Shown: positions 39,933 to 57,096, counted from the first letter of the stretch. The stretch is 64,000 bases of DNA from an uncultured Dehalococcoidales bacterium (GCA_964509565.1 CAZDXE010000001.1:3670-67669); one strand, 5' to 3'. Numbers and translations: made by a program. The notes: generated by a model not told the origin, from the letters alone.

Positions 39933-39934
39933 AA

Positions 39935-41284: not shown

Positions 41285-41311
41285 AATAAACCGGGGATTT
41301 AAGGATCAAAT

Positions 41312-41389
41312 TAGCTAAAGGCAATCACGGACTTGAGCTCAGTAAAGAAAACAGGGAGCCATAATTATTTCGAGGATTGCCTTTAGCTA
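41312..41389 (+). promoter_or_regulatory. Structured 5' leader or intergenic element bounded by a 15-bp perfect inverted repeat (TAGCTAAAGGCAATC ... GATTGCCTTTAGCTA), upstream of the AOR gene
   Basis: Arms at 41312-41326 and 41375-41389 enclose a 48-nt interior containing the palindrome TGAGCTCA. It lies 30 nt before the AOR SD (AGGAGG) and is too long-looped to be a simple intrinsic terminator. Confidence 0.35.
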
Positions 41390-41420
41390 TGAAGTTGATT
41401 TCAATAAAAGAGGAGGTAAG

Positions 41421-43151
41421 ATGGACGGATTCTACAACAAAATTTTGCGCATTAATGTTAGCAAGAAATCATTTGAACAGGAACCGGTCAGCGATGAAAT
41501 CTACCAAACATTATTAGGAGGCAAAGGCCTTGCCACACATCTGCTGGTGAACAACACAAAAGCAGGAGTTGACCCTTTATCAGAAGGCAACGTGCTCATT
41601 TTCGCTACAGGGCCTGTTACAGACACGGCAGTTTGGGGCTCTTCCAGATATGGGGTATTCACCAAAGCTCCTTTAACGGGATTATATGCTGAATCTTATT
41701 CCGGGGGTAAAGTTGCTGAGCCGCTGAGTAGAACTGGCTATGACGCGATAATGATCGAAGGAGCTTCTAAAAACCCTGTTTATCTTGAGATTTCTGACGG
41801 AGATGTAAAATTTCATAATGCATCTCATATCTGGGGAAAGGACACCTACGAAACAGAGGATATTATAAAACAAGAAGTTGGCATAAAAAATGCAGGAGTT
41901 GTCGTTATAGGGCCCGCTGGTGAAAATTTGGTGCGATTCGCCTGCATCGAAAATGATTACTGGAGGTCGGCTGGCAGAACAGGAGTTGGAGCAGTAATGG
42001 GCTCTAAGAAAATTAAGGGCATCGCCTTCCATGGTAACAAGAAGAGGAAAGTGGCAAACCCCGACTTACTTAAGAAGCTGAGTACGGAACTAAAAGATAT
42101 AGGCAAAGATAATCCTGGAGCAAAGAACTACAGAAGTTTTGGGACATTACAAATGGTACCTATCATGAACAAAGTTGGGGCATTCCCCACAAAATACTGG
42201 CATGCAGGAACTTATGATAAATGGCAAAACTTAACTCAGGATGCCTTACAGAAGAAAGCTAAAGTACGATCACACGCATGCCCAAGATGTTTTATGGGCT
42301 GTGGAAGGTTGACTGAGGTGCTTGAAGGCAGGCACAAGGGACTAAAACAGGAATTAGATTATGAAACTGTAGGTGCTTTTGGTGGAGTATGCCTGATAGA
42401 TGATATCGTGGAAGTTGTGTATCTAAACGATATATGTGACAGATTGGGCATGGATACCATAACTGCAGGCAACCTGGCAGGTTTTACCATAGAAGCTTCT
42501 CACTTAAAAGATATCGGAGAGAAAATTGAATATGGAGATGTTGACGCTATTGCTGCTTTGTTAAATAAAATGGCAATGAAAGAAGGTATCGGGGCTATTC
42601 TGGCCGAAGGCATAAAACATGCCAGCAAAGAATGGGGCCTCGAGGATTTGGCTATTCATGTCAAAGGAATGGAACCTGCATGCTATGATCCAAGGGTTTT
42701 GTATGGAATGGGTTTAGCATTTGCCACTTCGGACAGAGGCGCATGTCATTTAAGAGCAACTTTCTATAAAGCAGAGCTTTCAGGGGCGATATCCCCAACT
42801 GCAGTCGAGGGTAAAGCAGAGATGCTTATCGATTTCGAAGATAGGCACAATCTTTTCGACGCCCTGATTTTGTGCAGATTTTTCAGAGACCTGTACCCGT
42901 GGGAAAAAATTTCAACAGTCATAAACGCAACTACGGGAATGGAGCTAGATAAGAAGCAACTGCAGAAAGTGGCTTCAGCTATTGCAAATAAGGTTAGGGA
43001 GTTTAACCTGCGCGAGGGAATGAATAAAGAGATAGACGAAACACTGCCAAAGAGATTTTTCGAGGAAAAACTTGAGGATAGTGGCAAGGTATTACCCAAA
43101 GCTAGTTTTGACAGGATGTTATCTGATTATTATAAACTCAAAGGGTGGTAA
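41421..43151 (+). CDS. Aldehyde:ferredoxin oxidoreductase (tungsten/molybdopterin AOR family)
   Basis: MDGFYNKILRINVSKKSFEQEPVSDEIYQTLLGGKGLATHLL.. N-terminal AFOR_N domain and C-terminal AFOR_C with the Cys ligands of the [4Fe-4S] cluster (..CPRCFMGCG..). 576 aa. Confidence 0.9.
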   Translation: MDGFYNKILRINVSKKSFEQEPVSDEIYQTLLGGKGLATHLLVNNTKAGVDPLSEGNVLIFATGPVTDTAVWGSSRYGVFTKAPLTGLYAESYSGGKVAEPLSRTGYDAIMIEGASKNPVYLEISDGDVKFHNASHIWGKDTYETEDIIKQEVGIKNAGVVVIGPAGENLVRFACIENDYWRSAGRTGVGAVMGSKKIKGIAFHGNKKRKVANPDLLKKLSTELKDIGKDNPGAKNYRSFGTLQMVPIMNKVGAFPTKYWHAGTYDKWQNLTQDALQKKAKVRSHACPRCFMGCGRLTEVLEGRHKGLKQELDYETVGAFGGVCLIDDIVEVVYLNDICDRLGMDTITAGNLAGFTIEASHLKDIGEKIEYGDVDAIAALLNKMAMKEGIGAILAEGIKHASKEWGLEDLAIHVKGMEPACYDPRVLYGMGLAFATSDRGACHLRATFYKAELSGAISPTAVEGKAEMLIDFEDRHNLFDALILCRFFRDLYPWEKISTVINATTGMELDKKQLQKVASAIANKVREFNLREGMNKEIDETLPKRFFEEKLEDSGKVLPKASFDRMLSDYYKLKGW

Positions 43152-43356: not shown

Positions 43357-44454
43357 CTAAAGGTGAATTGACCCGTGGGCAGGTGATCCATGGCTATCGA
43401 AGAATCCAGCTAACTCATCCCGTTTAAATTGAGGTAAATCGCATACTCCTGCTATAGTGTGTATCTTCAGTCCTTTTTTCGCTTCCACTATTTTCCCTAT
43501 GACGTTGGCATTAATCCCAATTTTATGTAGCCCTTCCAACAATCTGGAAGTCTCGGAAGAAGGCAGTGTAATAATCAAGGCTCCCGATGCTAATAAACCA
43601 AGAGGGTCAATTTCAAATTTGCCACAGATAGCCTTGCACTCAGCCAAAACAGGTATATTTTCCCCTTCCACCAAAATGCCAACCTGTGCTGCAGTAGCTA
43701 TTTCCAAAAGCCCTGTAGCTAATCCACCCTCGGTAGGGTCATGCATTGAGTGCACAGTCACCATTGAGCACGCAGTTAGTGCCTCCTTGACCACGCTAAT
43801 CCCTGGGGAAAAGAGGTAATTTGCCGCACGCTGGACCAAATTTTTATTTAACCCTGCGGAGAGAAGAGCTTTCTCTGCTTCCTGTGCCAGTACAGCCGTC
43901 CCCTCGATGGCAATTCCCTTTGTAAGCACAACATCGTCGCCCAACATGGCTCCAGATGTAGTTATTATAGACCCTTCCTCAGCTTCCCCCAGCATACACC
44001 CAACCACCACAGGGCGATTGAAATCATAAGTTATCTCAGTATGTCCCCCTACAAGAGTAACCCCCAGAGAATTACAAGCAGAAAGTACCTGGTCGAAAAT
44101 CTTTTCCGCTTCCTGATGGGTTGATTGTTCAGGAAGGAGAATGGTCGCCAGAAACCAGCGTGGCTTCACTCCCATAGTAGCGATGTCATTGGCATTAACA
44201 TGAACCACATACCAACCAATAAAATCAGTAGCAAATGTCACCGGGTCCGTTTTAGCCACCAATAATTTGTGACCGCATTTTATCACCGCCGCGTCTTCGC
44301 CAATACGAGGACCGAGAATGACCTGCTCATCCTCTATCTTAATTTTATCCAGAAAATTTCTAAGTAAGTCTGATGGGAGTTTACCGACATTCAAAGAATC
44401 CATTTTAAAATTTTGATTATAGTTGCATATCTCGAAGGTGGGGTAACAACCCAC
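43357..44454 (-). CDS. AIR-synthase-related (PurM-like superfamily) protein of unknown function
   Basis: PurM-like N and C domains (..GEDAAVIKCGHKLLVAKTDPV.., ..HDPTEGGLATGLLEIA..). Lacks the HypE C-terminal PRIC Cys motif, so it is not assigned to HypE, ThiL or SelD. 3 nt downstream of iorB. Confidence 0.72.
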   Translation of the reverse strand: MGCYPTFEICNYNQNFKMDSLNVGKLPSDLLRNFLDKIKIEDEQVILGPRIGEDAAVIKCGHKLLVAKTDPVTFATDFIGWYVVHVNANDIATMGVKPRWFLATILLPEQSTHQEAEKIFDQVLSACNSLGVTLVGGHTEITYDFNRPVVVGCMLGEAEEGSIITTSGAMLGDDVVLTKGIAIEGTAVLAQEAEKALLSAGLNKNLVQRAANYLFSPGISVVKEALTACSMVTVHSMHDPTEGGLATGLLEIATAAQVGILVEGENIPVLAECKAICGKFEIDPLGLLASGALIITLPSSETSRLLEGLHKIGINANVIGKIVEAKKGLKIHTIAGVCDLPQFKRDELAGFFDSHGSPAHGSIHL

Positions 44455-44457
44455 CTC

Positions 44458-45102
44458 TTATTTTGCCCGATACTTATCTATGCCCTCTTCATTTAACTCG
44501 ACATCGCCAATGCCCATTTCAAGAGCCTTTAAGTTCAATTTCATCTTTCCGTGCGGAAAGATATTCCACATTTCATTCTCAACATCCGCCCTTTCCAGAA
44601 CAAGTTGGCCTGAACCAATGAGAGCTCCTACCATAATAATATTCACAACTATGGGAGCGCCCAGTTTCGATGCTATACTTGTAGCATCTACAAGCCAGAC
44701 TAACTTAGAAAGCTTTACAATTGCTTCCTTAAGTTCATCACAACCAGGGTATTCCTCTTTTTCTGAAAGTGCTCCTATTGTCAAGATAGGATGTGTATTG
44801 GTTACACACACTACTCCTGGGTTTCCATATCGCTGTAGCATCCTTAAAGTCTCCAGAGGTTCAAGTCCGAGAATAAGATGAGCTTTACCTTGTGGAATTA
44901 GCGGCCCATAATGCCCTTTAGTAAATATCCTGAGGGTACTAAAAACGGCGCCGCCCCTCTGGCTAGCCCCAAATGTTTCTCCTATAGTGACATGATAGCC
45001 CTTCTTCATCAACGCATTACCTATTAAGCCTGAGATTAAGATGTTCCCTTGACCCCCAACTCCACAAATAATCAGGTTTAATGGGTCACAAGAAATAGCC
45101 AT
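44458..45102 (-). CDS. iorB: Indolepyruvate (aromatic 2-oxoacid):ferredoxin oxidoreductase beta subunit
   Basis: ..LIICGVGGQGNILISGLIGNALMKKGY.. is a typical IorB N-terminus. 214 aa. 1-nt overlap with iorA. Confidence 0.88.
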   Translation of the reverse strand: MAISCDPLNLIICGVGGQGNILISGLIGNALMKKGYHVTIGETFGASQRGGAVFSTLRIFTKGHYGPLIPQGKAHLILGLEPLETLRMLQRYGNPGVVCVTNTHPILTIGALSEKEEYPGCDELKEAIVKLSKLVWLVDATSIASKLGAPIVVNIIMVGALIGSGQLVLERADVENEMWNIFPHGKMKLNLKALEMGIGDVELNEEGIDKYRAK

Positions 45103-47018
45103 TATTTTATATTCTCCTTAACGATAGCTTTATATGGGCATATATCAACACAGACTCCACACCCAGTACAAACTTCCTCCAGCACTTGTGCCTTATCAAC
45201 CTCCTTATCATGGAATAAAGCAGGACACTGAAACTCCCTGTAGCAAAACCCGCACTTTCCCCCCCCACATTTTTCTGGATCAACCCAAACTCTATACGGG
45301 CGGGCCCGCTCCTCTTTCATTCGAACCAATTCACACTTTCTACGTAAAATCAGGACCTTAGGCCCATTCTCATCTTTCAGCAACTCACAGAGAGTGATTG
45401 TGGTCCCCTTTATATCAAAAGGGTCTCTCACTTGTACTTTGCACCCTATAGCACGACAAAGGCTCTCAATAGACACTACGGGGGCTGGGTCCTGAGTGGC
45501 AGTTCTACCTGTCCCTGGGTGAGGTTGGAAACCAGTCATTCCCGTAGCACCATTATCTAGCACTAACAGCGTCATGCTCGACTTGTTATAAACAGCGTTA
45601 ATTAACGCTGGGATTGATGCGTGAAAAAATGTTGAGTCGCCGCATATCCCAATAGACGGCTGTTCCGACCCTAAAGAGGCAAGCTGGCCAAAACCACAGG
45701 CCGACCCTGCTCCTGAGCCCATGCAATGCACTATATTGCTCTGGTGAGGGCCATAGGGAAATACGTCCAGTGTGTAACAACCAATATCACCAACCACCAC
45801 CACCTTTCTACCATCACGTTTTATGGCCTTCTTTAAAGAGAGAAAGCTAGCCCGATGAGGGCACCCAGGGCACCAGAGCATGCCGCGGTCAATGACCAGC
45901 GGCTTAGCTGTATCCTGAACCATCTGCTCATAACTAGTTTCTCTCGCCCGATATTGCAATTTCAAGATTTCAGCCAGGGCGCATATTATTCCATCCGGTG
46001 TTATCTCACCGACAGGGTTTATATGGCCAGAATCTTTACCATATATTTCCAGGGGCAGTACCGTATCTAAATACAATGTTGCTGTTTCTCTCACGTGAGC
46101 TTCGACAAAAGGATCCACTTCCTCTGCCACGAGTACCCTGGTTGTCAATTTTAAGTATTTAGCAACAAATTTCTTGGGGAACGGCCACAGAGTCACCAGT
46201 TTCAGAATTCCCACTGATTCACTCAAGCCCAGTGTTTCTACAGCCTCAAGAGAGCATGGCCAGCCACTACCACTACAGATTATCAGCAGCTCTGGTTGCT
46301 CTGGTCCTGTATATGAATTGAAAGGGCTGGACTCAAACATCTCTTGAACCTTGAGCATCTTCTCATGCAAAATGGCATGTTTCGGTGTAGTCGGGAAGGG
46401 AATATAGTGTTTAGTGGTATCGAATACAGCTTTCTTCTCTGGCCGGGATATTTTCCCGAGCTTGACATCACCATGTGAATGGGACAGTCGTGTATAGCTC
46501 CTCAAGAAACACCAGCATTTCAACTCCTCAGATAAATCAAATGCCCACCTGGTCAAATCCTTGGCCTCCTGCACATCTGTTGGCTCTAAAAGGGGGGCAC
46601 TGGCTATTTTAGTTATCCAGCGTGTATCAGCTTCATCATCACTGGAATGAGCTTGCGGATCATCACATACAACTACCAGCAATGCTCCTCCCCCATCACC
46701 TATACCTGTCAGGTTAAGGTGCGTCAAGAAATCCATTGCTACACTTGCACCAGCATTCTTCATGGCAGCAAGTCCTCTCAATCCAGAAAAAGCTGCTGAC
46801 GCTGCTACTTCTGTAGCTACCTTCTCATTGACAGACCATTCCACATGAATACCAATATTTTTAGCAACTGTGGCAAGTGTTCCAATAATTTCTGAGGAAG
46901 GCGTCCCTGGATAAGCAGCGCAGAAGTGCACTCCTGCCTCAAGTGCACCCCTGGCTATTGCTTCATTGCCAAGCAGCAGCGCAGAAGTGTCTGCTTCTTG
47001 CCCCATGATGTCTCGCAT
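45102..47018 (-). CDS. iorA: Indolepyruvate:ferredoxin oxidoreductase alpha subunit (TPP, 2x[4Fe-4S])
   Basis: ..LLLGNEAIARGALEAGVHFCAAYPGTPSSEI.. N-terminus, TPP domain, and C-terminal CxxCxxCxxxCP ferredoxin motifs (CTGCGVCVDICPYKAI). 638 aa. Confidence 0.9.
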   Translation of the reverse strand: MRDIMGQEADTSALLLGNEAIARGALEAGVHFCAAYPGTPSSEIIGTLATVAKNIGIHVEWSVNEKVATEVAASAAFSGLRGLAAMKNAGASVAMDFLTHLNLTGIGDGGGALLVVVCDDPQAHSSDDEADTRWITKIASAPLLEPTDVQEAKDLTRWAFDLSEELKCWCFLRSYTRLSHSHGDVKLGKISRPEKKAVFDTTKHYIPFPTTPKHAILHEKMLKVQEMFESSPFNSYTGPEQPELLIICSGSGWPCSLEAVETLGLSESVGILKLVTLWPFPKKFVAKYLKLTTRVLVAEEVDPFVEAHVRETATLYLDTVLPLEIYGKDSGHINPVGEITPDGIICALAEILKLQYRARETSYEQMVQDTAKPLVIDRGMLWCPGCPHRASFLSLKKAIKRDGRKVVVVGDIGCYTLDVFPYGPHQSNIVHCMGSGAGSACGFGQLASLGSEQPSIGICGDSTFFHASIPALINAVYNKSSMTLLVLDNGATGMTGFQPHPGTGRTATQDPAPVVSIESLCRAIGCKVQVRDPFDIKGTTITLCELLKDENGPKVLILRRKCELVRMKEERARPYRVWVDPEKCGGGKCGFCYREFQCPALFHDKEVDKAQVLEEVCTGCGVCVDICPYKAIVKENIK

Positions 47019-47115: not shown

Positions 47116-47894
47116 TCATTTCCCTAACACCACCCCCGTTGGGTCTATTTCCTGTCGTAATATTATTAAATTCTCTTCACTGGGCATATAGCTTATTTCA
47201 ACTTTATCTGGTATGACAATTTCGAAACCGCTATTCTGCCTTACCTCATCTATACTCACCCCCGGATGCAGGGAAATCAATTTCAGTCTTTTCGTTTCCT
47301 CATCAAAACCATAGACAGCTAGTTGGGTAATAACTCGGTAGGGCCTGATCCTCTAGCCAACCCTGCCCTTTCCCTACCTCCTGGGCCATCCAGGTAGCCA
47401 GCAGTGGTCAGAAAATCAACCTTATTGACAAAACTCCTTTTACATTGATTAGCAATAATGTAAATAGTTTTGTTTGAGAAAGAACCCACATTATTAGCAC
47501 CACCACTGCCAGGTAGGCGAACTTTGGGCCTGTCATGATCGCCTATGACGGTGGTATTAAGATTGCCATACATATCCATCTGTGCGCCTACCAGAAATCC
47601 ATAATCTGCATATCCTGCCTGTGAAAGCGACATAACATCATGCATACTGGAAGCGCTTATAGCCCTGTAGATAGTTCTAGAATCACCTACAGAGATAGGC
47701 AACTCATTCATCAGAGGCCCCAGCCCACCAGCCTCAAATATTATGAATAAATCAGGCGCATGCGTTTTTTGAGCCAGCATAGAAGCTATCATAGGAAGTC
47801 CTGTGCCCACAAAGACAGATTTCTTGTTCTCCAACATTTTGGAGCCATTGCACGCCAATAATTCTCGTAAATTATACCTGGTTTTTGTTGCCAT
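47116..47894 (-). pseudogene. Glutaconate-CoA-transferase subunit B-like (CoA-transferase beta) gene interrupted by a frameshift
   Basis: The track ORF (47319-47894, 191 aa) ends ..LPGSGGANN..GLARGSGPTELLPN* and lacks the family's C-terminal roughly 70 aa. A hand translation in a different reading frame downstream to the TGA at 47116 gives the expected C-terminus RVITQLAVYGFDEETKRLKLISLHPGVSIDEVRQNSGFEIVIPD..LRQEIDPTGVVLGK. The junction is within ggccctaccgagttattacc (about 47345-47325). Confidence 0.7.
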
Positions 47895-47932
47895 ACCTTT
47901 AACTCCCCCTATTTGACACTAATTCTAAGATT

Positions 47933-48943
47933 TCATTTGTATGATATGGCCTTCATCGGCTCCTCATAAGACTCTCTTCTCTTTAAATAATCCAACTTTT
48001 TTGCACCACCACAGGCTTCCAGATAATCCTCAAAATTGGCAATGCTGTAGACATATTTTTGCAGATACTCATCTGCACCCTCCTCAGTTCTGGACAATTT
48101 CAACCATTCAGCTATATGCTCTTCATCAAACCAATACAAACCGGGCATCTCGGAAGGGTGTGCGCTATACGGAATCTCAACTACAGCATCTACTACCAAA
48201 AAAGGTATACTTGTTTTCCAGGGCTCTCTCCTGATAACTTCATTATCAACAATCTCCTCAGTAGTTATTATTAATCTTCGAGCACATCTGGAAAGTTCAA
48301 AATCCTCCACCAGGTGACCATCTATTTGGGCATTGCCATAGATATCACATCGGTGAACATGAATAAACGCCGCATCAGGGTAGGCTGCTGGAATCAAATT
48401 GATTGGTTTGCCGCTAAAGGGATCCTGGATTACCTTACAGGAGCTGTATTTGCCGGTGTCAGTGCCAAGTAAGTTGCGGCTAGGTATAAATGGCAGGCCC
48501 ATCATCCCAGCTAACCATCGCAATTGGTACCCAGCATTGCTGGTTTCAGCAATGACTTTACATCTCCCGCTTTCCACCATCCTTCTTGAAGCCGGAGATA
48601 AACCTCTAAGCTCATGGCCAAAACTGTAAGCCACCTCTGCCCTATTTACACAGCCAGAAGCCACCAGAATGTCAATATCGTGGACCGCTGTTTTACCAGC
48701 CATAATCAGATTGCGCTTCCTCTGTCTGATTATCTCATAGACAACAGCCATGGACACTCTTATATGTCCAAACCCTCCACTGGCTATAAAATCTCCATCA
48801 TGAACGAATTTGGCAACGGCCTCTTTAACTGACATGGTCTTATCCTTTAATTCACGTGACTTATTATTTAGCACCCATTCCCTGGCCTCGTCCGGATCAT
48901 GCCACCCTATAAGTTCACCTTTGCCCTCCTGTAATATTTGCAT
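47933..48943 (-). CDS. Glutaconate-CoA-transferase subunit A-like (family I CoA-transferase alpha)
   Basis: ..KFVHDGDFIASGGFGHIRVSMAVVYEIIRQ.. CoA-transferase alpha N-domain. 336 aa. The start may be the internal Met (MSVKEAV..). Confidence 0.8.
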   Translation of the reverse strand: MQILQEGKGELIGWHDPDEAREWVLNNKSRELKDKTMSVKEAVAKFVHDGDFIASGGFGHIRVSMAVVYEIIRQRKRNLIMAGKTAVHDIDILVASGCVNRAEVAYSFGHELRGLSPASRRMVESGRCKVIAETSNAGYQLRWLAGMMGLPFIPSRNLLGTDTGKYSSCKVIQDPFSGKPINLIPAAYPDAAFIHVHRCDIYGNAQIDGHLVEDFELSRCARRLIITTEEIVDNEVIRREPWKTSIPFLVVDAVVEIPYSAHPSEMPGLYWFDEEHIAEWLKLSRTEEGADEYLQKYVYSIANFEDYLEACGGAKKLDYLKRRESYEEPMKAISYK

Positions 48944-48970
48944 TTTATTTATCTACTTTGCAACGCTTGT

Positions 48971-49900
48971 TTAGTAACCTACTTTATCCAGTCCTTTAAG
49001 CCCCAGAAGCTGTCTTGTTTCATCAGGGGTAGCTATATCAATGTCCAGCTCCCTGGCAATGCGGGTGATTTTCCCCACCTGCTCAGCGCTACTTTTAGCC
49101 AGTATTCCTTTGCCGACATACAGGCTATCTTCCAGGCCAACTCTGACATTGCCTTTCATAACTAACGCAGCAGTGCATATGGGGAGCTGAAAATGGCCAG
49201 CAGCACACACTGACCAGACAAAATCATCACCAAAAGCATGTGTGGCTGTTTCATGCAAAAATACCAGATTATCGACAGAGGGAGGTATTCCTCCCATAAT
49301 TCCCATGACAAACTGAAGATAAAGGGGTTTTTTGAGGAATCCTTTCTTTACCAGGTAAAGCAAATTGTTAATCATGCCGACATCGTAGATTTCCAATTCA
49401 GGTTTGGTATTGCTCTCTTCAAAAGTCCGAGCGAATTCCTGTAGAGACTTAAATGTATTGGGGAAGATGAAATCTTCAGTCATCCTCAAATATTGCTTTT
49501 CCCACGAATATTTCCACTCCTTTATCTGCATTCGTTCGGGAAGGTCGAAAAGGCCAAAGTTTATGGAGCCAGCATTGAATGAAGCTAATTCTGGTTTAAA
49601 GGTGGGAACCACTTTTAACCTCTCCTTTATAGGCATACCCAAGCCTCCACCAGTGGTTGTGCATACAACGAGATTACATTTGCTTTTTATCCTGGCTAAT
49701 ATTTCGCGGAAGAGGTTCATGTCTGAACTGGGCTGACCTGTTTTTGGGTTACGTATATGTATGTGAACTACACTGGCTCCGGCATCATAAGCTTCAATTG
49801 CTTGTTCAGCAATTTGCTCTGGCGTGATAGGCAGGTAAGGGCTCATGCTGGGAGTATGTATACCACCAGTGATCGCTGCGGTTATTATTACTTTAGCCAT
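48971..49900 (-). CDS. BKACE-family beta-keto acid cleavage enzyme (3-keto-5-aminohexanoate cleavage enzyme-like, DUF849)
   Basis: MAKVIITAAITGGIHTPSMSPYLPITPEQIAEQAIEAYDAGASVVHIHIRNPKTG.. matches the Kce/BKACE TIM-barrel N-terminus. Confidence 0.85.
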   Translation of the reverse strand: MAKVIITAAITGGIHTPSMSPYLPITPEQIAEQAIEAYDAGASVVHIHIRNPKTGQPSSDMNLFREILARIKSKCNLVVCTTTGGGLGMPIKERLKVVPTFKPELASFNAGSINFGLFDLPERMQIKEWKYSWEKQYLRMTEDFIFPNTFKSLQEFARTFEESNTKPELEIYDVGMINNLLYLVKKGFLKKPLYLQFVMGIMGGIPPSVDNLVFLHETATHAFGDDFVWSVCAAGHFQLPICTAALVMKGNVRVGLEDSLYVGKGILAKSSAEQVGKITRIARELDIDIATPDETRQLLGLKGLDKVGY

Positions 49901-49921
49901 AGTAAATCCTCCTCCGCTTTT

Positions 49922-50890
49922 CTAAACTATTCCATTACTGTCAGGGCGACTTCGTATTTCTTCAATGAAATCAAGCACTACTTTGTCAAAATCTGAGTAC
50001 ATAGCTTGCCAACCCCATTCCTCCCTCGCTTTGCTATCGTCGAAGATATCTACAGTAGAAGTACGAAAGTAATTCATTACATCAGGGTCAGGTTTGTAAC
50101 TTATGTGAGACTCCGGAATGTATTTCTTCACTACCTGTTCGATTTCTTTAGCTGTTCGAGTTGGTACCACACCAGCAACATTGTAGTTCACGGTTTTGAT
50201 TTCCTCGACAGGAGCATGATACATCATGTCTACAGACCTGGCTGCATCCTTAAAATACAGGACAGGACACTTTGTGTCTTCGCTGACGTAGCACTTAAAA
50301 GGTTTGCCCAAAGCTGGATACTCAATCATCCAGGCATTCCATTGTGCCACGCCGGGGGTTCTAACGCCTGGGCCAATCACTGAGGGAAAGCGCACTGACC
50401 TGAAATCCAGACCAAATTTGGAACGGTAGAACCTGCCCAAACACTCGCAATATAGTTTGCCACAACCATACATTGTTGTAGGTCGCTGAAGCGTCGTATC
50501 TGTAATTACAGGGGAGCAATCCAATCCGTATGTGGACAAAGTACTGGTGAAAATTACCTTGCTCGCTTTCAAAAGGCGAGCAGCCTCCAATACATTTACC
50601 ATCCCAACGACATTCACTTGAAAGGAAGCCCATGGATTCGCATTGGAAGGCACACTCAGCATTCCGCCCAGGTGGTAGATGCCTTCAATATTGTAATCCC
50701 TGACAACATTGAACACTTCAGGCCAATTAGCCAGGTTCCCCTGCGCTATTTTGACTTTATCATGAATATCACTAATACGAGCATAATTCGGGGCGACGTC
50801 AAACAGAACAACGTCCTCACCTTTATTGACAAGTATATGTGCTAATTCAGTACCAACAAAACCAGTTCCTCCAGTAATAAGAACTGCCAT
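49922..50890 (-). CDS. NAD-dependent epimerase/dehydratase-family (extended SDR) dehydrogenase, possibly an L-threonine 3-dehydrogenase-like beta-hydroxy acid dehydrogenase
   Basis: MAVLITGGTGFVGTELAHILV.. and a Y..K catalytic pair. GGGAGGTG SD. 21 nt upstream of the BKACE gene on the same strand. Confidence 0.78.
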   Translation of the reverse strand: MAVLITGGTGFVGTELAHILVNKGEDVVLFDVAPNYARISDIHDKVKIAQGNLANWPEVFNVVRDYNIEGIYHLGGMLSVPSNANPWASFQVNVVGMVNVLEAARLLKASKVIFTSTLSTYGLDCSPVITDTTLQRPTTMYGCGKLYCECLGRFYRSKFGLDFRSVRFPSVIGPGVRTPGVAQWNAWMIEYPALGKPFKCYVSEDTKCPVLYFKDAARSVDMMYHAPVEEIKTVNYNVAGVVPTRTAKEIEQVVKKYIPESHISYKPDPDVMNYFRTSTVDIFDDSKAREEWGWQAMYSDFDKVVLDFIEEIRSRPDSNGIV

Positions 50891-51082
50891 CTATATACAC
50901 CTCCCTCTAATTCATTAAGATATTTTTATCTCTTAATAGTTGGAGTATCAACAGCATGGCTCATGTCCAGAGGACTCCACCTTACAATACCCTCAGAATA
51001 GTGATCTCCGCCTCGTGGCAGCCATTTTTGAGATACAGAGTCTTATTTTCCACACTTGTTAGCATAGATAGAAACTAATATT

Positions 51083-51934
51083 TTACTTCTTGACTAATTC
51101 GGCCAGCTTCTCAGCTTCTCCTTGAATCATTTTATAGCAATGTATATCTTCCGGGAATTTGCTTTCTCTAATATCGCTTATGTAATCTTGAAAAGCGTTC
51201 ACCATGTCTTCAGCTATATGAGCGTATCGCTTGACAAATTTAGGTTTGAAAGCCTGCCAGATACCCAGCATATCATGTGCAATAAGTAGCTGCCCATCAC
51301 AATAGATACCGGCACCAATACCATATACCGGTATTTCAAGGTCTTCGGTTATAAATTTGCCCACTTCAGGAGCTACTGCCTCTAAAAGTAAAAGTTGCGC
51401 ACCTGCTTCCTGAAGTGCTCTAGCATCCTTAATTACCTCATTTGCAGTTTCCGCTGTGCGCCCCTGAGCTTTATAGCCGCCAAATTGCCCCGTGCTTTGT
51501 GGGGTTAAGCCAATATGGCCACAAACAACCATCCCTGCATCAACAACTGCTTTTACTACTTTTGTGACCCGACGCCCTCCCTCCAGCTTGATAGCATCAA
51601 CTCCAGCTTCCTTATAGAACCTGCCTGCATTCCTGACAGCTTCTTCTGGCGTTGTCTGATAAGATAAAAAAGGCATATCGCCCATTACAAAAGTGTTGGG
51701 GGCTCCTCTGCGAACAGCTTCCGCATGCACAATGCATTGGTCCATAGTAACGGGGATAGTTCCTGCTGTATATCCATAAATGAGCATGCCTACCGAGTCT
51801 CCCACCAGAATCATATCTATGCCCGCCTGTTCCTGAAACTGCGCCATTGGGTAATCGTAGCAAGTTAGCCACGTAACTTTTTCGCCTTCTTTCTTCATCT
51901 TTTGAAAATCTATCAGGCCCTTCTTCTTCTGCAT
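51083..51934 (-). CDS. panB: 3-methyl-2-oxobutanoate hydroxymethyltransferase (ketopantoate hydroxymethyltransferase)
   Basis: Aligns along its length with PanB: ..TCYDYPMAQF..ILVGDSVGM..VRRGAPNTFVMGDMPF..AIKLEGG..VCGHIGLTPQS..GGYKAQGRT.. Confidence 0.88.
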   Translation of the reverse strand: MQKKKGLIDFQKMKKEGEKVTWLTCYDYPMAQFQEQAGIDMILVGDSVGMLIYGYTAGTIPVTMDQCIVHAEAVRRGAPNTFVMGDMPFLSYQTTPEEAVRNAGRFYKEAGVDAIKLEGGRRVTKVVKAVVDAGMVVCGHIGLTPQSTGQFGGYKAQGRTAETANEVIKDARALQEAGAQLLLLEAVAPEVGKFITEDLEIPVYGIGAGIYCDGQLLIAHDMLGIWQAFKPKFVKRYAHIAEDMVNAFQDYISDIRESKFPEDIHCYKMIQGEAEKLAELVKK

Positions 51935-51967
51935 TTAATCATCTCCTTTCTTTTTAAATAGCATGAA

Positions 51968-52921
51968 CTATGGTTTTGGAATCGCCAGGTCCTCAGGTCC
52001 CTGGTCTGACAGGATTGCCTCAGGGAAGTTTTCTTGAATAAGTTCGTGGATGATACAAGCATACTTCACCTTCTCCCTGGCCCAATTGGCCAGCATCTCT
52101 CTATCTACCCAGGGTTTATAAAGTGCTTGAGGCCCCACTGCGAGTGCTGGTCCGGGCTCTATTTTGAAGTAACAGGGAGCCGACACCCTGACCATTTCGG
52201 GCGCTTCGTAAAAACGCATAAATCCACCATAGGATTCAGCTAATATGATGTGTACATCTATTGGTATATCTACAGCCTGGCGAATAGATGCAAACTGGGG
52301 TAGAGTCAAATCCCCCAGTGGATTAAAGGTGCCTGCTCCCAGCTCTTCCAGAAGCTTACCACCGGCAGCGGAGGCATGCCCGGCATAAATAGAGACTTTG
52401 AAAACTACATCTGCGGGGATGTCACCATTTTTCCTCATCATATTGAGCATTCTAAGTAGCCCTTCATCGACAACCAGGAAACCTCGAATTCCTATGTCAA
52501 TGCAGCGCATTATATCGGCAACAACATACTTCAATTGGTCGGAACCTCGGTAACGGATTCCAGAAAGGGCGCCCTCATAATTATCGATTTGTCTTCCCAC
52601 GTCCCAAGACCGACGGGGCCCTGGATTAATTATCACTTCCAATTTTGCATCGGCAGCTAACTGAGCAAAGTCTTTTAACTCCTCCTTATCCAAAAGGGTC
52701 GCACCCATAACTACTGAAATCAAGCGGTGAATAGCAATATTTCGCTTCCTCATCTCATCTATCATGGCCTCCAATACATTAGGTCTCTCCAAACCGGATA
52801 TTTCCATCCTGTACCAGGCTCCATCAGGAAAACGCTTCTTGCTGGTCGTCAGATCATAAGCATCCCGGCTTGGTATGCCAACCTTTTCCATCGCTCTGGC
52901 AGCTCTATTTAAATTACCCAT
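51968..52921 (-). CDS. Conserved hypothetical protein (317 aa), function unknown
   Basis: Long ORF with a G-rich SD (AAAAAGGGGGGGAA) and no motif I can assign. Co-oriented, 33 nt upstream of panB. Confidence 0.5.
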   Translation of the reverse strand: MGNLNRAARAMEKVGIPSRDAYDLTTSKKRFPDGAWYRMEISGLERPNVLEAMIDEMRKRNIAIHRLISVVMGATLLDKEELKDFAQLAADAKLEVIINPGPRRSWDVGRQIDNYEGALSGIRYRGSDQLKYVVADIMRCIDIGIRGFLVVDEGLLRMLNMMRKNGDIPADVVFKVSIYAGHASAAGGKLLEELGAGTFNPLGDLTLPQFASIRQAVDIPIDVHIILAESYGGFMRFYEAPEMVRVSAPCYFKIEPGPALAVGPQALYKPWVDREMLANWAREKVKYACIIHELIQENFPEAILSDQGPEDLAIPKP

Positions 52922-53361: not shown

Positions 53362-53616
53362 TCATATTATATCCAAAATGTTTCCAACCGCGTCTTCACC
53401 ACCACTTAGTATATCTAAATCATATATCTCCGTATATCCACAATTGTTACATGAAGCAAAGATATATCGGTTGTGTTGAATATTAAAAATCTTTGAAACT
53501 CCTGTTCCCGCCATCGCTAAGCTCTTGACGCTTGCACCCGTATTGTGGCACTGCGGGCATTTGAATCTGTGATATAGGCGAACTTCTCGCCATTCTATTT
53601 CTCCTTCCCATTTAGG
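53362..53616 (-). pseudogene. Remnant or disrupted small zinc-ribbon protein gene (MqsA/YgiT-like CxxC...CxxCG fold)
   Basis: The 85-codon minus-strand frame 53362-53616 encodes ..EWREVRLYHRFKCPQCHNTGASVKSLAMAGTGVSKIFNIQHNRYIFASCNNCGYTEIYDLDILSGGEDAVGNILDII*. It has no ATG, GTG or TTG start before the zinc-binding pair. An ATG at 53601-53603 with a perfect AAGGAG SD is in the +1 frame and terminates after 36 codons. Confidence 0.3.
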
Positions 53617-54055
53617 TTAACAGAATAATTCAAGTGGGTCACTTGTTCTTTTGTTCCCGTTCAATGTTATCTACTATAGCCTTTTTTAGCCATTGGGTTA
53701 GCGTTTTTTGGTAATGGCCGCCATATGAGCTTGGTGGCTGACAAAGCCTGGACACGGTGATTAGGTCGGTGAAGTATGAGTGCATTTTGAAGTTGCACAG
53801 GGATTTTATTTATGATTAGAGTGAATCTATTGGCTAATCAAAAAGGAGAGTTTGCCTTGTCAATAGTAAGGGGCCTCACTAGATTCTCACAACTTTATCT
53901 GTCTAATCGTAGGGATGCAGTCTACTACAGCGATAAGCAACTTTGCATTTTTAGCTATTGCTCTAGTAAAAGATTTCGCCGCTCATCTAATCTCATGCTG
54001 GCAAGTTTATTGTAGTTTGTTTTTTCCTTGGAGCCTGCAGGCTCTGGTCGAACAT

Positions 54056-54091
54056 CGAAGCACAGGGGCTCATGTTGGCCCCTGTGCTTCG
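54056..54091. terminator. Strong hairpin (14-bp perfect stem CGAAGCACAGGGGC / GCCCCTGTGCTTCG, 8-nt loop), 5 nt downstream of the saccharopine-dehydrogenase-family gene stop
   Basis: Seen directly. Lies just 3' of the minus-strand stop at 54097. The flanks are not strongly U-rich on either strand, so it may be a factor-dependent or bidirectional terminator, or an RNA-stability element. Confidence 0.45.
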
Positions 54092-54096
54092 GATTT

Positions 54097-55329
54097 CTAT
54101 GATATGGTTACGTCTTTCGAGTGTGTTTCCGTGAATTTCACTGGAGCGCCCATGTCAGCCATCCGCTTCATAAACCTCATCGGCTCAAGGCATTCTGGGG
54201 CGATTATTCCCCTGTTCGCCTCGCCTGCCATGCACATTTTTGCTCCTACAATTGCTGACAGGGCGACACCGATTTTCGTCGTCCCAAATTTGTGATAGTA
54301 TCCAAGAGTTTCTTCAGTGGTCGCGTTCGACCTGGCCAATTTGTAAATGACGTTTTCGCCTGATTTACTTCCTTTCACCTCCACCAGCATACAGTGACGA
54401 TGTTTAACAGGAGCGCCAGCAGTTCTTTCATCCTCAGTAAAGAACATGTCGCTCGGAGCATGCACCATCTTCAATAAGACATCGATCGGTGCAACTTTGG
54501 CACCACGTACATCAATGGCCTCTTTGCTGGCAAATCCCATCTTAACCAGTGAGCCTGCTGTAGGATCTACGGGGTATTTGAAGGTGCAATTCTTAATGCC
54601 TTTGCCAATGAAATGTGGCAGCGTTACCGATTCGTCATGTGCGTGGTGGCATACTGTGACTGGGCCAACCTGGTTGGGGAAATCATATTCCTCGCAACCG
54701 CTGAAGGGAAGGTGTTTCGTGTATTTTCCATCAATGAATCCTGCTGCCTCGATGGCATAATCCGTTAGTGCTACTTCAGGAGACCATGTTGGTTGCCATG
54801 CACTGACTATTTCCTTAGATTTTTCTAGAGCCTTGCCGGCGAGTCTAATGTGTATCTCATCAACTCGATCCAGTTTGTCTGCTGCATATCGAGCCATTAC
54901 GTTTGTTACTCCCGGGGTTGCACCACAGCTGATCAAGGCAGTCAATCCAATCCTCTTGAATTCATCGTTGAGTGTAAGTGGTTGGTCTTGCATGATTTCC
55001 GACTTGAACGGCTCGCTATAAGCCGCATCTACGTAGTGCGCGCCGCATCTCACAGCGGCTTGCATTACGTTAAAGTCGAACTGAAGCAGAGTCAGATTGA
55101 TGATGACATCGACTCCTTTAGCTGCTGCCTCGACGCTTTCAACAGAAGAGGCATCTATTTTTACGGTTCTGATTTTGCCACTCTTTATTCGATCCTTTAC
55201 CTTGTTAGCCAGATTAAGGTCGATATCACCTAGCACTATTTCGGATATATCATTATCCCTGGCCAAGATCGATGCGCAAGGGCCACCCTGAGCTCCGGCT
55301 CCTACTATCAGTACTTTCTTACCGCTCAT
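54097..55329 (-). CDS. Saccharopine-dehydrogenase-family NAD(P)-binding protein (lysine-6-dehydrogenase/carboxynorspermidine-synthase-like)
   Basis: KKVLIVGAGAQGGPCASILARD Rossmann N-terminus and the Sacchrp_dh architecture. 410 aa. Confidence 0.78.
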   Translation of the reverse strand: MSGKKVLIVGAGAQGGPCASILARDNDISEIVLGDIDLNLANKVKDRIKSGKIRTVKIDASSVESVEAAAKGVDVIINLTLLQFDFNVMQAAVRCGAHYVDAAYSEPFKSEIMQDQPLTLNDEFKRIGLTALISCGATPGVTNVMARYAADKLDRVDEIHIRLAGKALEKSKEIVSAWQPTWSPEVALTDYAIEAAGFIDGKYTKHLPFSGCEEYDFPNQVGPVTVCHHAHDESVTLPHFIGKGIKNCTFKYPVDPTAGSLVKMGFASKEAIDVRGAKVAPIDVLLKMVHAPSDMFFTEDERTAGAPVKHRHCMLVEVKGSKSGENVIYKLARSNATTEETLGYYHKFGTTKIGVALSAIVGAKMCMAGEANRGIIAPECLEPMRFMKRMADMGAPVKFTETHSKDVTIS

Positions 55330-55392
55330 GCGATTCTCCTTTCATGATTACTGCTCTTCTTTGCAGTTATCGCTGTCAATGTTGACCATGCG

Positions 55393-57096
55393 TTAATCTA
55401 CCGCTGCTCCTTTCTGGTGCACGGTTGTAGTGCTCCACGGATTCATCCAGGATACAGGACCACCCATCGAGTTTACCCAGCCTTCCAGCTTGTCGGTTCT
55501 GTACGCAGAAATCATGTCTGGTCTTACCAAGAAAGCGTAAGGTAAATCCTCAGCCATGAGTGCTTGCATTTCATACAGAGTTGCTTTGAGTCCTGGCAGA
55601 TCGGAGGCGGTATGCATTTCCTCCCACAGTTCATTAAAGCGTGGGTTATTCCAATAGGAGGCGTTCCACCAGTCACCTCCGGATCCCCAGCCTACCGCCA
55701 TGGTCCATATCCACTCCGAGTAGGGATCAGGAGCTGGTTCTTCTCCGGTGATGCCAATCTCATATTGATCCGATTCTGGATCGTAGAGGAAATCTAAAAA
55801 CGTGTCCGGATCCAATGTCTTGAAGTCAACGGCTATGCCTATTTCCGGAAGCATCTCCCCTATCACAGTGCCCATTTTGACACCGGGGGTACTTCCCGAC
55901 GAACAGCTGAGTTCGAAGATGAGGTTTTCCCCTGTGGCGGGATCATTTCTCACTCCATCCCCATCTGTATCTGTGTATCCAGCTTGCTCCAGGGTTTCCT
56001 TAGCTTTGCTGGGGTTATATGCATACTGTGGCAAGTTCGGGTTGTGCATTGGGCTCTCGTTGTATACCCAAGCATCGTATGGCTGTGCATATCCAAGATA
56101 TACTAAATCAATAATTCGCTGACGGTCGATGCCATACAGAATGGCATGCCGTACATTCTTATCCTGAAGTGGTGTGTCCTTATGGAGGTTAAACGATAAC
56201 CAGGTTAGGCCCATACCTGGCAATATCTCAAGGTTGATGTCTGGATTCTCCTGTATATCTTTGATAGCGATCGCGGGGATAACGGCGCCTGCAACCGTAT
56301 CTATTTCTCCGCTGTGTAGTGCCAGAAGCATGCCGTCGAGATTGGTGTAGTACCTGAAAAGTACTTTGTCCACGTAAGGCCTTTGCCCCCAGTATTCTTC
56401 GTTTGGCGCGAGCCACATGTATTGGTCACGTACAAACTCTTTCAATTTGAATGGACCTGTTCCGATTGCTTCTTCATTTGGATACTGTAATATGTCATCT
56501 TTGTATGGTTCGAAAATATGTTTGGGTATTATCGGGTAGTATTTCCACCACGCGGGGAAGTGGACGGTCGTTAATGGGGAAGCGTGTACAAGCTTGATTG
56601 TGTAATCATCGATGACCTGGATGTCGTCAAAAGTATTTGTGACGCTACTCCACCCTGGGATGGTGCAAAAATACTTGGCGAAAAACTCAACGTCATACGC
56701 CGTAAAAGGTTCACCGTCATGCCACTTTGCATTTTCTACAAGGTGTAGCGTATAGGTCTTACGGTCTTCTGACACTTCGTAGCTTTGTACCAATCTCGGC
56801 TCGAATTTGTAGAAGTCAGCATCCGGCCCAGCCGCATAGTAGGCTAGATTGTCATACACGAGCCGTATGAAAAGGCAGCCCCAGTTCGTCCACTCGAGCG
56901 CGGGGTCCATCGCTGTGCTCTCCATGCCACCAGTGAAACCAACGCCTAATTCTCCTCCATATAGTTCTACCTCCTCACCTTCGCCATCTTCTTCAGGGGC
57001 TAGTGGAGCACATTGCATCATTGGGGCAGCTAAGCTAACCAGCAAAATCACTGTTCCAACTAGTGCTAGTAGGCTTCTTCTCTTTTGCATCTTCAT
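55393..57096 (-). CDS. ABC transporter substrate-binding protein, family 5 (oligopeptide-binding, OppA-like)
   Basis: Signal peptide MKMQKRRSLLALVGTVILLVSLAAP and the SBP_bac_5 fold. 567 aa. Paralog of the gene at 33764-35368. Confidence 0.85.
   Translation of the reverse strand: MKMQKRRSLLALVGTVILLVSLAAPMMQCAPLAPEEDGEGEEVELYGGELGVGFTGGMESTAMDPALEWTNWGCLFIRLVYDNLAYYAAGPDADFYKFEPRLVQSYEVSEDRKTYTLHLVENAKWHDGEPFTAYDVEFFAKYFCTIPGWSSVTNTFDDIQVIDDYTIKLVHASPLTTVHFPAWWKYYPIIPKHIFEPYKDDILQYPNEEAIGTGPFKLKEFVRDQYMWLAPNEEYWGQRPYVDKVLFRYYTNLDGMLLALHSGEIDTVAGAVIPAIAIKDIQENPDINLEILPGMGLTWLSFNLHKDTPLQDKNVRHAILYGIDRQRIIDLVYLGYAQPYDAWVYNESPMHNPNLPQYAYNPSKAKETLEQAGYTDTDGDGVRNDPATGENLIFELSCSSGSTPGVKMGTVIGEMLPEIGIAVDFKTLDPDTFLDFLYDPESDQYEIGITGEEPAPDPYSEWIWTMAVGWGSGGDWWNASYWNNPRFNELWEEMHTASDLPGLKATLYEMQALMAEDLPYAFLVRPDMISAYRTDKLEGWVNSMGGPVSWMNPWSTTTVHQKGAAVD

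Follow-up and report, generated by a model that had tools for sequence, protein, structure and literature searches.

A possible composite operon joining a PanB-centred core to a beta-keto-acid cleavage module in an uncultured Dehalococcoidales bacterium

We analysed 64,000 nucleotides of DNA, one strand, from an uncultured Dehalococcoidales bacterium (GCA_964509565.1 CAZDXE010000001.1:3670-67669; this whole stretch is called the window), and within it a minus-strand gene cluster first delimited at positions 47,116 to 52,921. [quoted passage not shown] The reading that we favour, tentatively, is that of a composite operon, in which a PanB-centred core of the pantoate type carries an attached BKACE module. 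The parts are familiar; their combination and the U317 family are undescribed. A first-pass annotation, made from the DNA sequence, had described six genes here as one BKACE-centred catabolic unit. Open reading frames (ORFs) and Pfam and NCBIfam matches bore out the positions and families of these genes, and their order is real, except that the CoA-transferase beta gene is not a single ORF from 47894 to 47116, being broken by a 1-nucleotide (nt) deletion. The cluster and its borders comprise the following features.

51968-52921, minus strand: U317, 317 amino acids (aa), ORF call
51083-51934, minus strand: panB, 3-methyl-2-oxobutanoate hydroxymethyltransferase, 283 aa, TIGR00222
50891-51082, minus strand: panB-SDR intergenic gap, 192 nt, from the gene coordinates
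49922-50890, minus strand: NAD-dependent extended SDR, fold like threonine 3-dehydrogenase (TDH), loop subtype GVAQW, 322 aa, PF01370 at 124 bits
48971-49900, minus strand: BKACE (DUF849), long 310-aa subgroup, 309 aa, PF05853
47933-48943, minus strand: glutaconate-type CoA-transferase alpha, 336 aa, PF01144 at 116 bits
47116-47894, minus strand: CoA-transferase beta, split; N-terminal part of 191 aa at 47319-47894
About 47340 to 47116, minus strand: C-terminal 74 residues of CoA-transferase beta, in another frame
45102-47018, minus strand: IorA-like subunit of a 2-oxoacid:ferredoxin oxidoreductase, TIGR03336 match
44458-45102, minus strand: IorB-like subunit, PF01558, overlapping the end of iorA
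43357-44454, minus strand: AIR-synthase-related protein (ThiL/HypE/SelD-like), PF00586 and PF02769, 3 nt after iorB
54055-54092: GC-rich 16-bp hairpin, directly after the stop of the upstream saccharopine-dehydrogenase-like gene

The cluster was compared with 76 metagenome loci around relatives of the SDR, plus further places found by exact look-up, and the synteny of U317 was followed in 79 genome loci. The full gene order of the cluster recurs in two contigs (L001 and L003) and rearranged versions of it in more than ten further ones; the arrangement is therefore more than chance. The related clusters fall into the following types.

Type (a), quaternary-amine (L092-L094): MttB-family methyltransferase, 3HCDH-type dehydrogenase, SDR, BKACE, acetoacetate-CoA ligase, ADP-forming acyl-CoA synthetase, TRAP transporter
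Type (b), PanB (L096-L100, L105, L167-L171): regulator, TRAP transporter, PanB, a 56% identical U317 paralogue, SDR, BKACE, four-subunit POR/VOR-type oxidoreductase
Type (c) (L002): PanB, U317 (94%), SDR (44%), four-subunit oxidoreductase, BKACE, acetoacetate-CoA ligase, thiolase
Type (d) (window, L001, L003, L107): U317, PanB, SDR, BKACE, CoA-transferase AB, IorAB
Type (e) (L091): U317, PanB, SDR, IorAB; no BKACE and no CoA-transferase

The SDR subtype goes together with PanB and U317. As seen among loci with readable flanks, SDRs carrying the loop GVAQW lie beside PanB and U317 in 12 of 12 cases, against 0 of 7 for the KHVSQY form of the MttB/3HCDH clusters (Fisher p = 2e-5); across the loci surveyed, the GVAQW form stands only beside PanB and U317, nearly always together with a 2-oxoacid:ferredoxin oxidoreductase. 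The oxidoreductase is IorAB in the window and, at the same position, in L001, L003, L091 and L107 and a four-subunit POR/VOR-type enzyme instead in L002, L096, L098-L100 and L167-L171, and it is absent from the MttB-type clusters. Since two different architectures occupy the same place, IorAB (44458-47018) belongs to the cluster; the six-gene boundary drawn at first left it out, though nearly every related cluster with PanB and U317 also has an enzyme of this kind. Two architectures filling one position, together with the fact that the substrate of PanB is a 2-oxo acid, argue for a 2-oxo acid intermediate in the pathway, and the earlier suggestion that PanB hints at a branched 2-oxo acid is strengthened by this linkage. 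In type (b), BKACE comes before or after the oxidoreductase, an MttB and a corrinoid protein sometimes follow, and PanB is 77-80% identical to that of the window and also passes the equivalog model. The AIR-synthase-related protein scores under every NCBIfam cut-off and its gene is present in L001 and was not seen in L003; its membership in the cluster is uncertain.

In Dehalococcoidia-type genomes, the two modules came together on at least three separate occasions, and the BKACE module is dispensable, having been lost in L091 and having partly decayed in the lineage of the window, through the beta frameshift and, in L086, in the alpha gene too. A single BKACE-centred six-gene unit, as first described, does not accommodate these loci: U317 and PanB are conserved together across many phyla without BKACE, and L091 has neither BKACE nor CoA-transferase.

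The decay of the CoA-transferase could be followed at nucleotide level. Its alpha subunit is nearest to the glutaconate CoA-transferase GctA (1POI_A, 155 bits), which makes the earlier label "glutaconate-type" correct, and the CoA_trans domains of the two subunits score 116 and 80 bits. The beta gene stops at 47319 after 191 codons, and its last 74 residues (YRVITQLAVYGFDEE...GVVLGK*) run out of frame to the stop at 47116-47118; alignment with three relatives puts the deletion, of 1 nt, within a short stretch of C residues near 47336. The lesion is real and lineage-specific, since L085-L087, three assemblies made independently from this population, show the split as well and the gene is uninterrupted, in one frame, in L001, L003 and L107. 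Programmed frameshifting was rejected, as no slippery motif was seen at the deletion site and the relatives are in frame. In L086, the alpha gene, which matches 47933-48943 of the window, is also split (11560-11563), into products of 201 and 125 aa, which suggests that decay of the CoA-transferase is continuing in this population. The N-terminal part of beta retains Glu54 within FEAGG, the counterpart of the catalytic Glu54 of GctB.

In the composite operon that we favour, the core would consist of U317, PanB, the SDR and IorAB and would operate along a reversible axis from pantoate through 2-dehydropantoate and 3-methyl-2-oxobutanoate (ketoisovalerate) to isobutyryl-CoA. The SDR, with its likeness to TDH and to the D-erythronate dehydrogenase DenD, would carry out the 2-hydroxy/2-oxo step (pantoate/2-dehydropantoate), PanB would pass a hydroxymethyl group to tetrahydrofolate or take one from it, the oxidoreductase would convert the 2-oxo acid and its acyl-CoA into each other, and U317 may be a metal-dependent TIM-barrel partner of PanB on the one-carbon/folate side. 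We propose this axis because PanB and a VOR/IOR-type enzyme share ketoisovalerate, because the SDR is related to a 2-dehydrogenase of a 2,4-dihydroxy acid and because L091 holds exactly this set of genes. The second module would be BKACE with the GctAB-type CoA-transferase: BKACE would convert a small uncharged beta-keto acid and acetyl-CoA into an acyl-CoA and acetoacetate, and the CoA-transferase (in relatives, acetoacetate-CoA ligase and thiolase) would turn acetoacetate into acetoacetyl-CoA. BKACE modules are a known ATP-free way of activating beta-keto acids. The simplest metabolite common to both modules would be a short branched acyl-CoA, such as isobutyryl-CoA. The substrates of the SDR and of BKACE, the direction of flux (towards breaking down pantoate that is taken up, or towards making pantoate or valine precursors out of scavenged acids) and the role of U317 are what we infer here. 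The sister clusters, which begin with a TRAP transporter and a regulator (TetR or two-component), suggest that an imported acid is broken down; a CoA-transferase paired with IorAB would also suit the making of a 2-oxo acid from scavenged acids by reductive carboxylation, a reaction of acyl-CoA that IOR and VOR enzymes are known to perform in anaerobes.

Several observations weigh against the composite operon. The 192 nt between panB and the SDR gene permit separate transcription, and the window U317-PanB pair could be housekeeping, since this U317 is of the canonical type (70-76% identical to other phyla), whereas the sister clusters carry the 56% identical paralogue. By sequence, threonine 3-dehydrogenases, enzymes that act on a 3-hydroxyl, match the SDR better (160 bits) than does the 2-dehydrogenase DenD (98 bits), and the binding protein of the sister-cluster TRAP transporters is nearest to lactate/keto-acid binders, at only 113 bits. 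A composite operon does not require BKACE to act in series with PanB; BKACE is nevertheless kept in most PanB-type clusters and has context-specific active-site residues (Gly13, Cys80), which suggests that it shares the pathway more closely than a composite operon explains. Finally, the SDR/BKACE loci come largely from related sediment metagenomes, so that the counts overstate their independence.

Other intergenic gaps in the cluster are 21-38 nt long, apart from 97 nt between the CoA-transferase beta gene and iorA; the L091 counterpart of the 192-nt gap measures 68 nt. A promoter-like match lies in the 192-nt gap at 50951-50922; such matches did not outnumber those in shuffled sequence. The scan for promoters and terminators as a whole did no better than on shuffled sequence, one strong hairpin excepted. 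This hairpin, at 54055-54092, is likely the upstream boundary of the transcription unit. An Rfam scan of the whole window found four tRNAs only, with no riboswitch or regulatory RNA in the 1.1-kb gap upstream of U317.

By model score and active-site motifs, PanB is a canonical enzyme. It scores 317.6 bits on TIGR00222 (cut-off 207.55) and 359 bits on PF02548, matches Escherichia coli PanB (1M3U) with 226 bits and, aligned to 1M3U, retains the motifs GDS, DMPF, KLEGG, GHIGLTPQS and LEAV. The IorA-like subunit is a member of its family; on TIGR03336, the equivalog model for indolepyruvate:ferredoxin oxidoreductase, it scores 581 bits, under the cut-off of 651.

The best solved relatives of the SDR are GalE-like L-threonine 3-dehydrogenases (3A1N, 160 bits). 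Thus, of the alternatives left by the first-pass annotation, a TDH-like or a sugar-epimerase-like enzyme, the TDH-like fold was confirmed; the threonine-binding loop is missing. The SDR retains the motif GGTGFVG (residues 7-13), Asp31 and the Tyr141/Lys145 pair (MYGCGK, residues 140-145). At residues 180-184 it has GVAQW in place of the loop GTTDY, which the five aligned TDH structures all share. Because of this replacement, the label "threonine 3-dehydrogenase" carried by SDR relatives at JGI is unsafe. Among NCBIfam models, the best match is D-erythronate dehydrogenase, over the full length and at 98 bits far under the cut-off. From these sequence relationships, pantoate is a plausible substrate of the SDR. 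Binding proteins of TRAP transporters have been recorded for "pantoate/D-erythronate" (PMC5812351).

BKACE was compared with solved structures and with subgroup models. PF05853 matches residues 3-301 with 349.7 bits (cut-off 24.8), and the protein aligns end to end with the long BKACEs of about 310 aa (3LOT, 3E02, 3E49 and BKACE15), with 367 bits and 54% identity to 3LOT and 269 bits and 44% identity to BKACE15 of Paracoccus denitrificans (8RIO). Aligned with 8RIO and 3LOT, it retains H46-I-H48, Glu170, Tyr172 and R253-VGLED; they correspond to the zinc ligands, the catalytic Glu171, Tyr173 and Arg254, whose roles are described for BKACE15 (PMC11961710) and in the flavophos preprint. As the zinc ligands, Glu170, Tyr172 and Arg253 are kept, the enzyme is catalytically complete and is expected to follow canonical BKACE chemistry. 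It is not the canonical Kce of lysine fermentation, the ordinary route against which the first proposal had been set: the Kce model NF052387 gives 276 bits (cut-off 382) and the Kce structure 2Y7D gives 182 bits against 367 for 3LOT. Its subgroup is placed among enzymes for small uncharged beta-keto acids. The positions that separate the gene contexts include Gly13 and Cys80 in the PanB type against Ala/Ser13 and Asn80 in the MttB type. A further context is found in Desulfoglaeba alkanexedens (L088; CP040098, 2743906-2762835), the only cultured carrier of a close relative (71% identical), in which BKACE has as neighbours an acyl-CoA dehydrogenase, a MaoC hydratase, thiolase-like/DUF35 genes, a carboxyltransferase, an enoyl-CoA hydratase and an HMGL-like protein.

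The SDR and BKACE genes are adjacent in 17 related loci, and most relatives with readable flanks have an enzyme for acetoacetate, whether an acetoacetate-CoA ligase (905 bits), the thiolase of L002 or a CoA-transferase. These neighbourhoods support the earlier proposal that a dehydrogenase feeds BKACE and that acetoacetate is then activated; SDR and BKACE are predicted to form a module, with acetoacetate as the product of the BKACE pathway.

The strongest alternative, which we nevertheless hold to be unlikely, extends this module into a linear catabolic pathway: the SDR would oxidise an imported beta-hydroxy acid, BKACE would cleave the resulting keto acid with acetyl-CoA, the CoA-transferase would activate acetoacetate, and PanB, U317 and the oxidoreductase would deal with the acyl-CoA or 2-oxo acid side of this substrate, which would probably be branched. 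The SDR-BKACE pairing and the acetoacetate-activating enzymes are what such a pathway predicts, and PanB, U317, SDR, BKACE and the oxidoreductase occur together in three arrangements of shuffled order, with context-specific active-site positions in both BKACE and the SDR. TRAP transporters and TetR or two-component regulators in the sister clusters also resemble those of catabolic operons. However, we could construct no chemically coherent single substrate that would pass through PanB, the oxidoreductase and BKACE in series; pantoate, pantothenate, D-apionate/erythronate, 3-hydroxy-4-methylpentanoate, 3-hydroxyvalerate and 3-hydroxypropionate were tried, and none gave a coherent series using all the enzymes. 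L091 without BKACE and CoA-transferase, the decaying CoA-transferase of this strain and the U317-PanB pairs without BKACE in many phyla also speak against it.

Mere juxtaposition, by chance or for regulation, of a housekeeping U317-PanB pair for pantothenate or one-carbon metabolism with an unrelated SDR-BKACE-CoA-transferase operon is a still more doubtful explanation. It would account for the canonical U317, of a type that stands beside PanB in many phyla, for the canonical PanB and for the gap between panB and the SDR gene, but the combination recurs in three arrangements with diverged sequences (U317 56-94%, SDR 44-93% and BKACE 64-95% identical), and the GVAQW loop type is exclusive to the PanB/U317 context.

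It is improbable that BKACE is the 3,5-dioxohexanoate (triacetate) enzyme of anaerobic phloroglucinol degradation, with the SDR replacing 3-hydroxy-5-oxohexanoate dehydrogenase. The triacetate/3,5-dioxohexanoate equivalog model NF053538 does give 433.1 bits (cut-off 430), 3,5-dioxohexanoate is accepted by the related BKACE15 (PMC11961710), and the CoA-transferase fits the role drawn for CtfAB (PMC10470551). Nevertheless, the model does not discriminate: orthologues from five other gene contexts score 418-438 bits, so that the label, which NCBI would give to this BKACE on a 3-bit margin, says little about the substrate. Neither a phloroglucinol reductase nor a cyclase-family hydrolase turned up among the annotated ORFs of 21.8-64 kb, the published dehydrogenase is of the 3HCDH type and not an extended SDR (PMC10470551), and PanB, U317 and the oxidoreductase would be left unexplained.

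Least probable of all is a carnitine or quaternary-amine route, in which the SDR would oxidise a carnitine-like beta-hydroxy betaine and BKACE would release betainyl-CoA and acetoacetate: the closest non-PanB relatives of the SDR and BKACE (75-76% identical, L092-L094) do lie in type (a) clusters with MttB, and MttB with a corrinoid protein follows some PanB-type clusters, but no MttB, corrinoid or 3HCDH gene occurs among the annotated ORFs (21.8-64 kb), the enzymes of the MttB context have a different SDR loop and other residues at BKACE positions 13 and 80, and the 3HCDH of the MttB clusters itself scores far under the cut-offs of the carnitine dehydrogenase models. Clusters with the type (a) gene set also occur in L102-L103, where L102 adds an MR/MLE enzyme, an IlvD/Edd dehydratase and an RACo-type activase; like those of L092-L094, they resemble anaerobic pathways for methylated amines, whether carnitine-like or others.

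U317, the constant partner of PanB in the composite operon, is the most novel element, being large as a family, strongly conserved, unnamed and persistent beside PanB and folate one-carbon genes. No match to it was found in Pfam or NCBIfam, and a profile search against PDB sequences returned spurious matches only. The route of annotation proposed at first, by family models and structure prediction, thus yielded no family and a predicted TIM barrel (AlphaFold2 model, mean confidence score pLDDT 81.7). We found 2696 homologues in a database clustered at 90%, most of them more than 70% identical across phyla, which reduce to 972 representatives of 50%-identity clusters. They occur in Chloroflexota, Zixibacteria, Eisenbacteria, Bipolaricaulota, Acidobacteriota, Gemmatimonadota, Actinomycetes and others; the closest related genome contig (L001) carries a protein 96% identical, and a Bacillota branch is 36-38% identical.

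Structure searches with the model gave generic barrel matches only (class II aldolases, a U32 peptidase, PanB and PrpB), and the TM-scores of about 0.5 to peptidase U32 and class II aldolases amount to likeness at the level of the barrel only. Across three subfamilies, Glu40, Arg66, Glu95, Arg146, Glu153, Lys175, His182, Asn200, Asp204, Asp222, His224, Arg236 and Lys253 are invariant, and they lie on or just after the predicted barrel strands. In the model, such a pattern is in keeping with metal dependence and the binding of an anionic substrate. Known families were considered and set aside: a U32 peptidase, as there is no PF01136 match and no cysteine is invariant across subfamilies (a cross-match to PF01136 appears in two remote family members only); a U32 Fe-S hydroxylase, as conserved cysteines are absent; core MetE, as the zinc-binding cysteines are absent; and an aldo-keto reductase, as no such matches were obtained.

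U317 lies directly beside PanB in about 22 of the 79 genome loci, in either order and on the same strand, and outside Dehalococcoidia the pairs surveyed have neither SDR nor BKACE. In 15 Anaerolineae loci, U317 is instead followed by two tandem fusions of a DHDPS-family aldolase with a formaldehyde-activating enzyme (DHDPS-Fae; L004-L040, e.g., L040 10075-11514 and 11904-13379), and PanB is never present there. Other neighbours are MTHFR with a MetH-like protein, a Pterin_bind enzyme, a Cys/Met pyridoxal-phosphate enzyme, homoserine dehydrogenase, aldehyde dehydrogenase, transaldolase, nitroreductase-family proteins and IorAB-like genes; in the Bacillota branch, the nitroreductase neighbour occurs again, along with aldehyde:ferredoxin oxidoreductases. 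By their gene families, these neighbourhoods point to folate-linked one-carbon chemistry and aldehydes as what they share. A search of the literature for the U317 family, DHDPS-Fae fusions and PanB-linked unknowns found nothing relevant. It is possible, if on the whole rather unlikely, that U317 founds an undescribed family of metal-dependent TIM barrels, remotely like U32 and the class II aldolases, which partners PanB or, in Anaerolineae, DHDPS-Fae fusions in tetrahydrofolate-linked one-carbon transfer to or from 2-oxo acids. L096 keeps, 4 kb upstream of its 56% paralogue, what is left of a canonical-type U317, a short stretch in two frames (2742-2934) with 76-77% identity; since both stand on one contig, this genome has or had both forms.

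If such a role were true, U317 might be a missing step of pantoate formation or a new way to make or use methylene-tetrahydrofolate, which would change the metabolic reconstruction of uncultured anaerobes in Chloroflexota, Zixibacteria, Eisenbacteria and Bipolaricaulota, and the cluster of PanB, U317, SDR, BKACE and oxidoreductase would be a new pathway of anaerobes that connects the one-carbon pool with a branched hydroxy acid. The conserved five-gene cluster offers a concrete set of proteins for co-expression.

Other genes of the window were also annotated. Upstream, at 54097-57096 (minus strand), are a saccharopine-dehydrogenase-like protein, whose best match is carboxynorspermidine synthase, far under the cut-off, and a solute-binding protein of family 5, the N-terminus of which is lipoprotein-like; the hairpin stands between these genes and the cluster. 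In the otherwise ORF-free 1.1-kb gap upstream of U317 lies a small zinc-ribbon-like gene (53362-53611, minus strand; …KCPQCHNTGASVKSLAMAGTGVSKIFNIQHNRYIFASCNNCGYTEIYD…), the N-terminal part of which lacks a start codon in frame and coincides in part with a 42-aa ORF read in a different frame; frameshifting may have hit a second gene of this strain here. On the other side, at 38550-43151 (plus strand), two class III aminotransferases and then an aldehyde:ferredoxin oxidoreductase converge on the cluster end and could feed beta-amino or omega-amino acids into it. Farther away, at 25948-27123 (plus strand), a tubulin/FtsZ-family protein with a CetZ C-terminal domain (PF00091 at 112 bits, PF21011 at 71 bits) adjoins an IPT/TIG-domain protein. 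CetZ is known as an archaeal family, and its presence on a contig assigned to Dehalococcoidia is unusual.

The cluster can be set against known systems. At the level of single proteins, 3A1N from Thermoplasma volcanium and the SDR share fold, length, NAD-binding motif and catalytic Tyr-Lys pair and differ in the threonine-contacting loop, GTTDY against GVAQW. Similarly, the conserved cysteine motif of peptidase U32 is not among the U317 invariants, and the window protein has no direct Pfam match. Among BKACE pathways, the closest are those of Kce in lysine fermentation, of CdhC for carnitine and, in phloroglucinol degradation, of the triacetate enzyme (Bastard et al. 2014, via the NetSyn preprint; PMC10470551), the last being clustered with phloroglucinol reductase, a cyclase-family hydrolase and a 3HCDH-type dehydrogenase (PMC10470551). 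The window cluster resembles them in its predicted logic: a dehydrogenase makes a beta-keto acid, a zinc-dependent BKACE with acetyl-CoA yields an acyl-CoA and acetoacetate, and a CoA-transferase or ligase provides activation. It differs in that its dehydrogenase is a TDH-like extended SDR, a new partner for BKACE modules, and not a 3HCDH-type enzyme or Kdd; its BKACE fails the lysine model and is borderline on the triacetate model; no upstream enzyme of these pathways is encoded nearby; and the module is joined to PanB, a TIM barrel of unknown function and a 2-oxoacid:ferredoxin oxidoreductase.

The pantoate branch of pantothenate synthesis consists of PanB and the ketopantoate reductase PanE or IlvC. 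The window cluster is like it in having PanB beside an oxidoreductase able to make or consume its 2-oxo acid and beside a candidate dehydrogenase for the reductase step. Unlike that branch, it is without a PanE-type reductase, PanC and PanD, its putative reductase is an extended SDR, a TIM barrel of the U317 family is a constant partner, and the sister clusters carry uptake and regulator genes of the kind found in catabolism.

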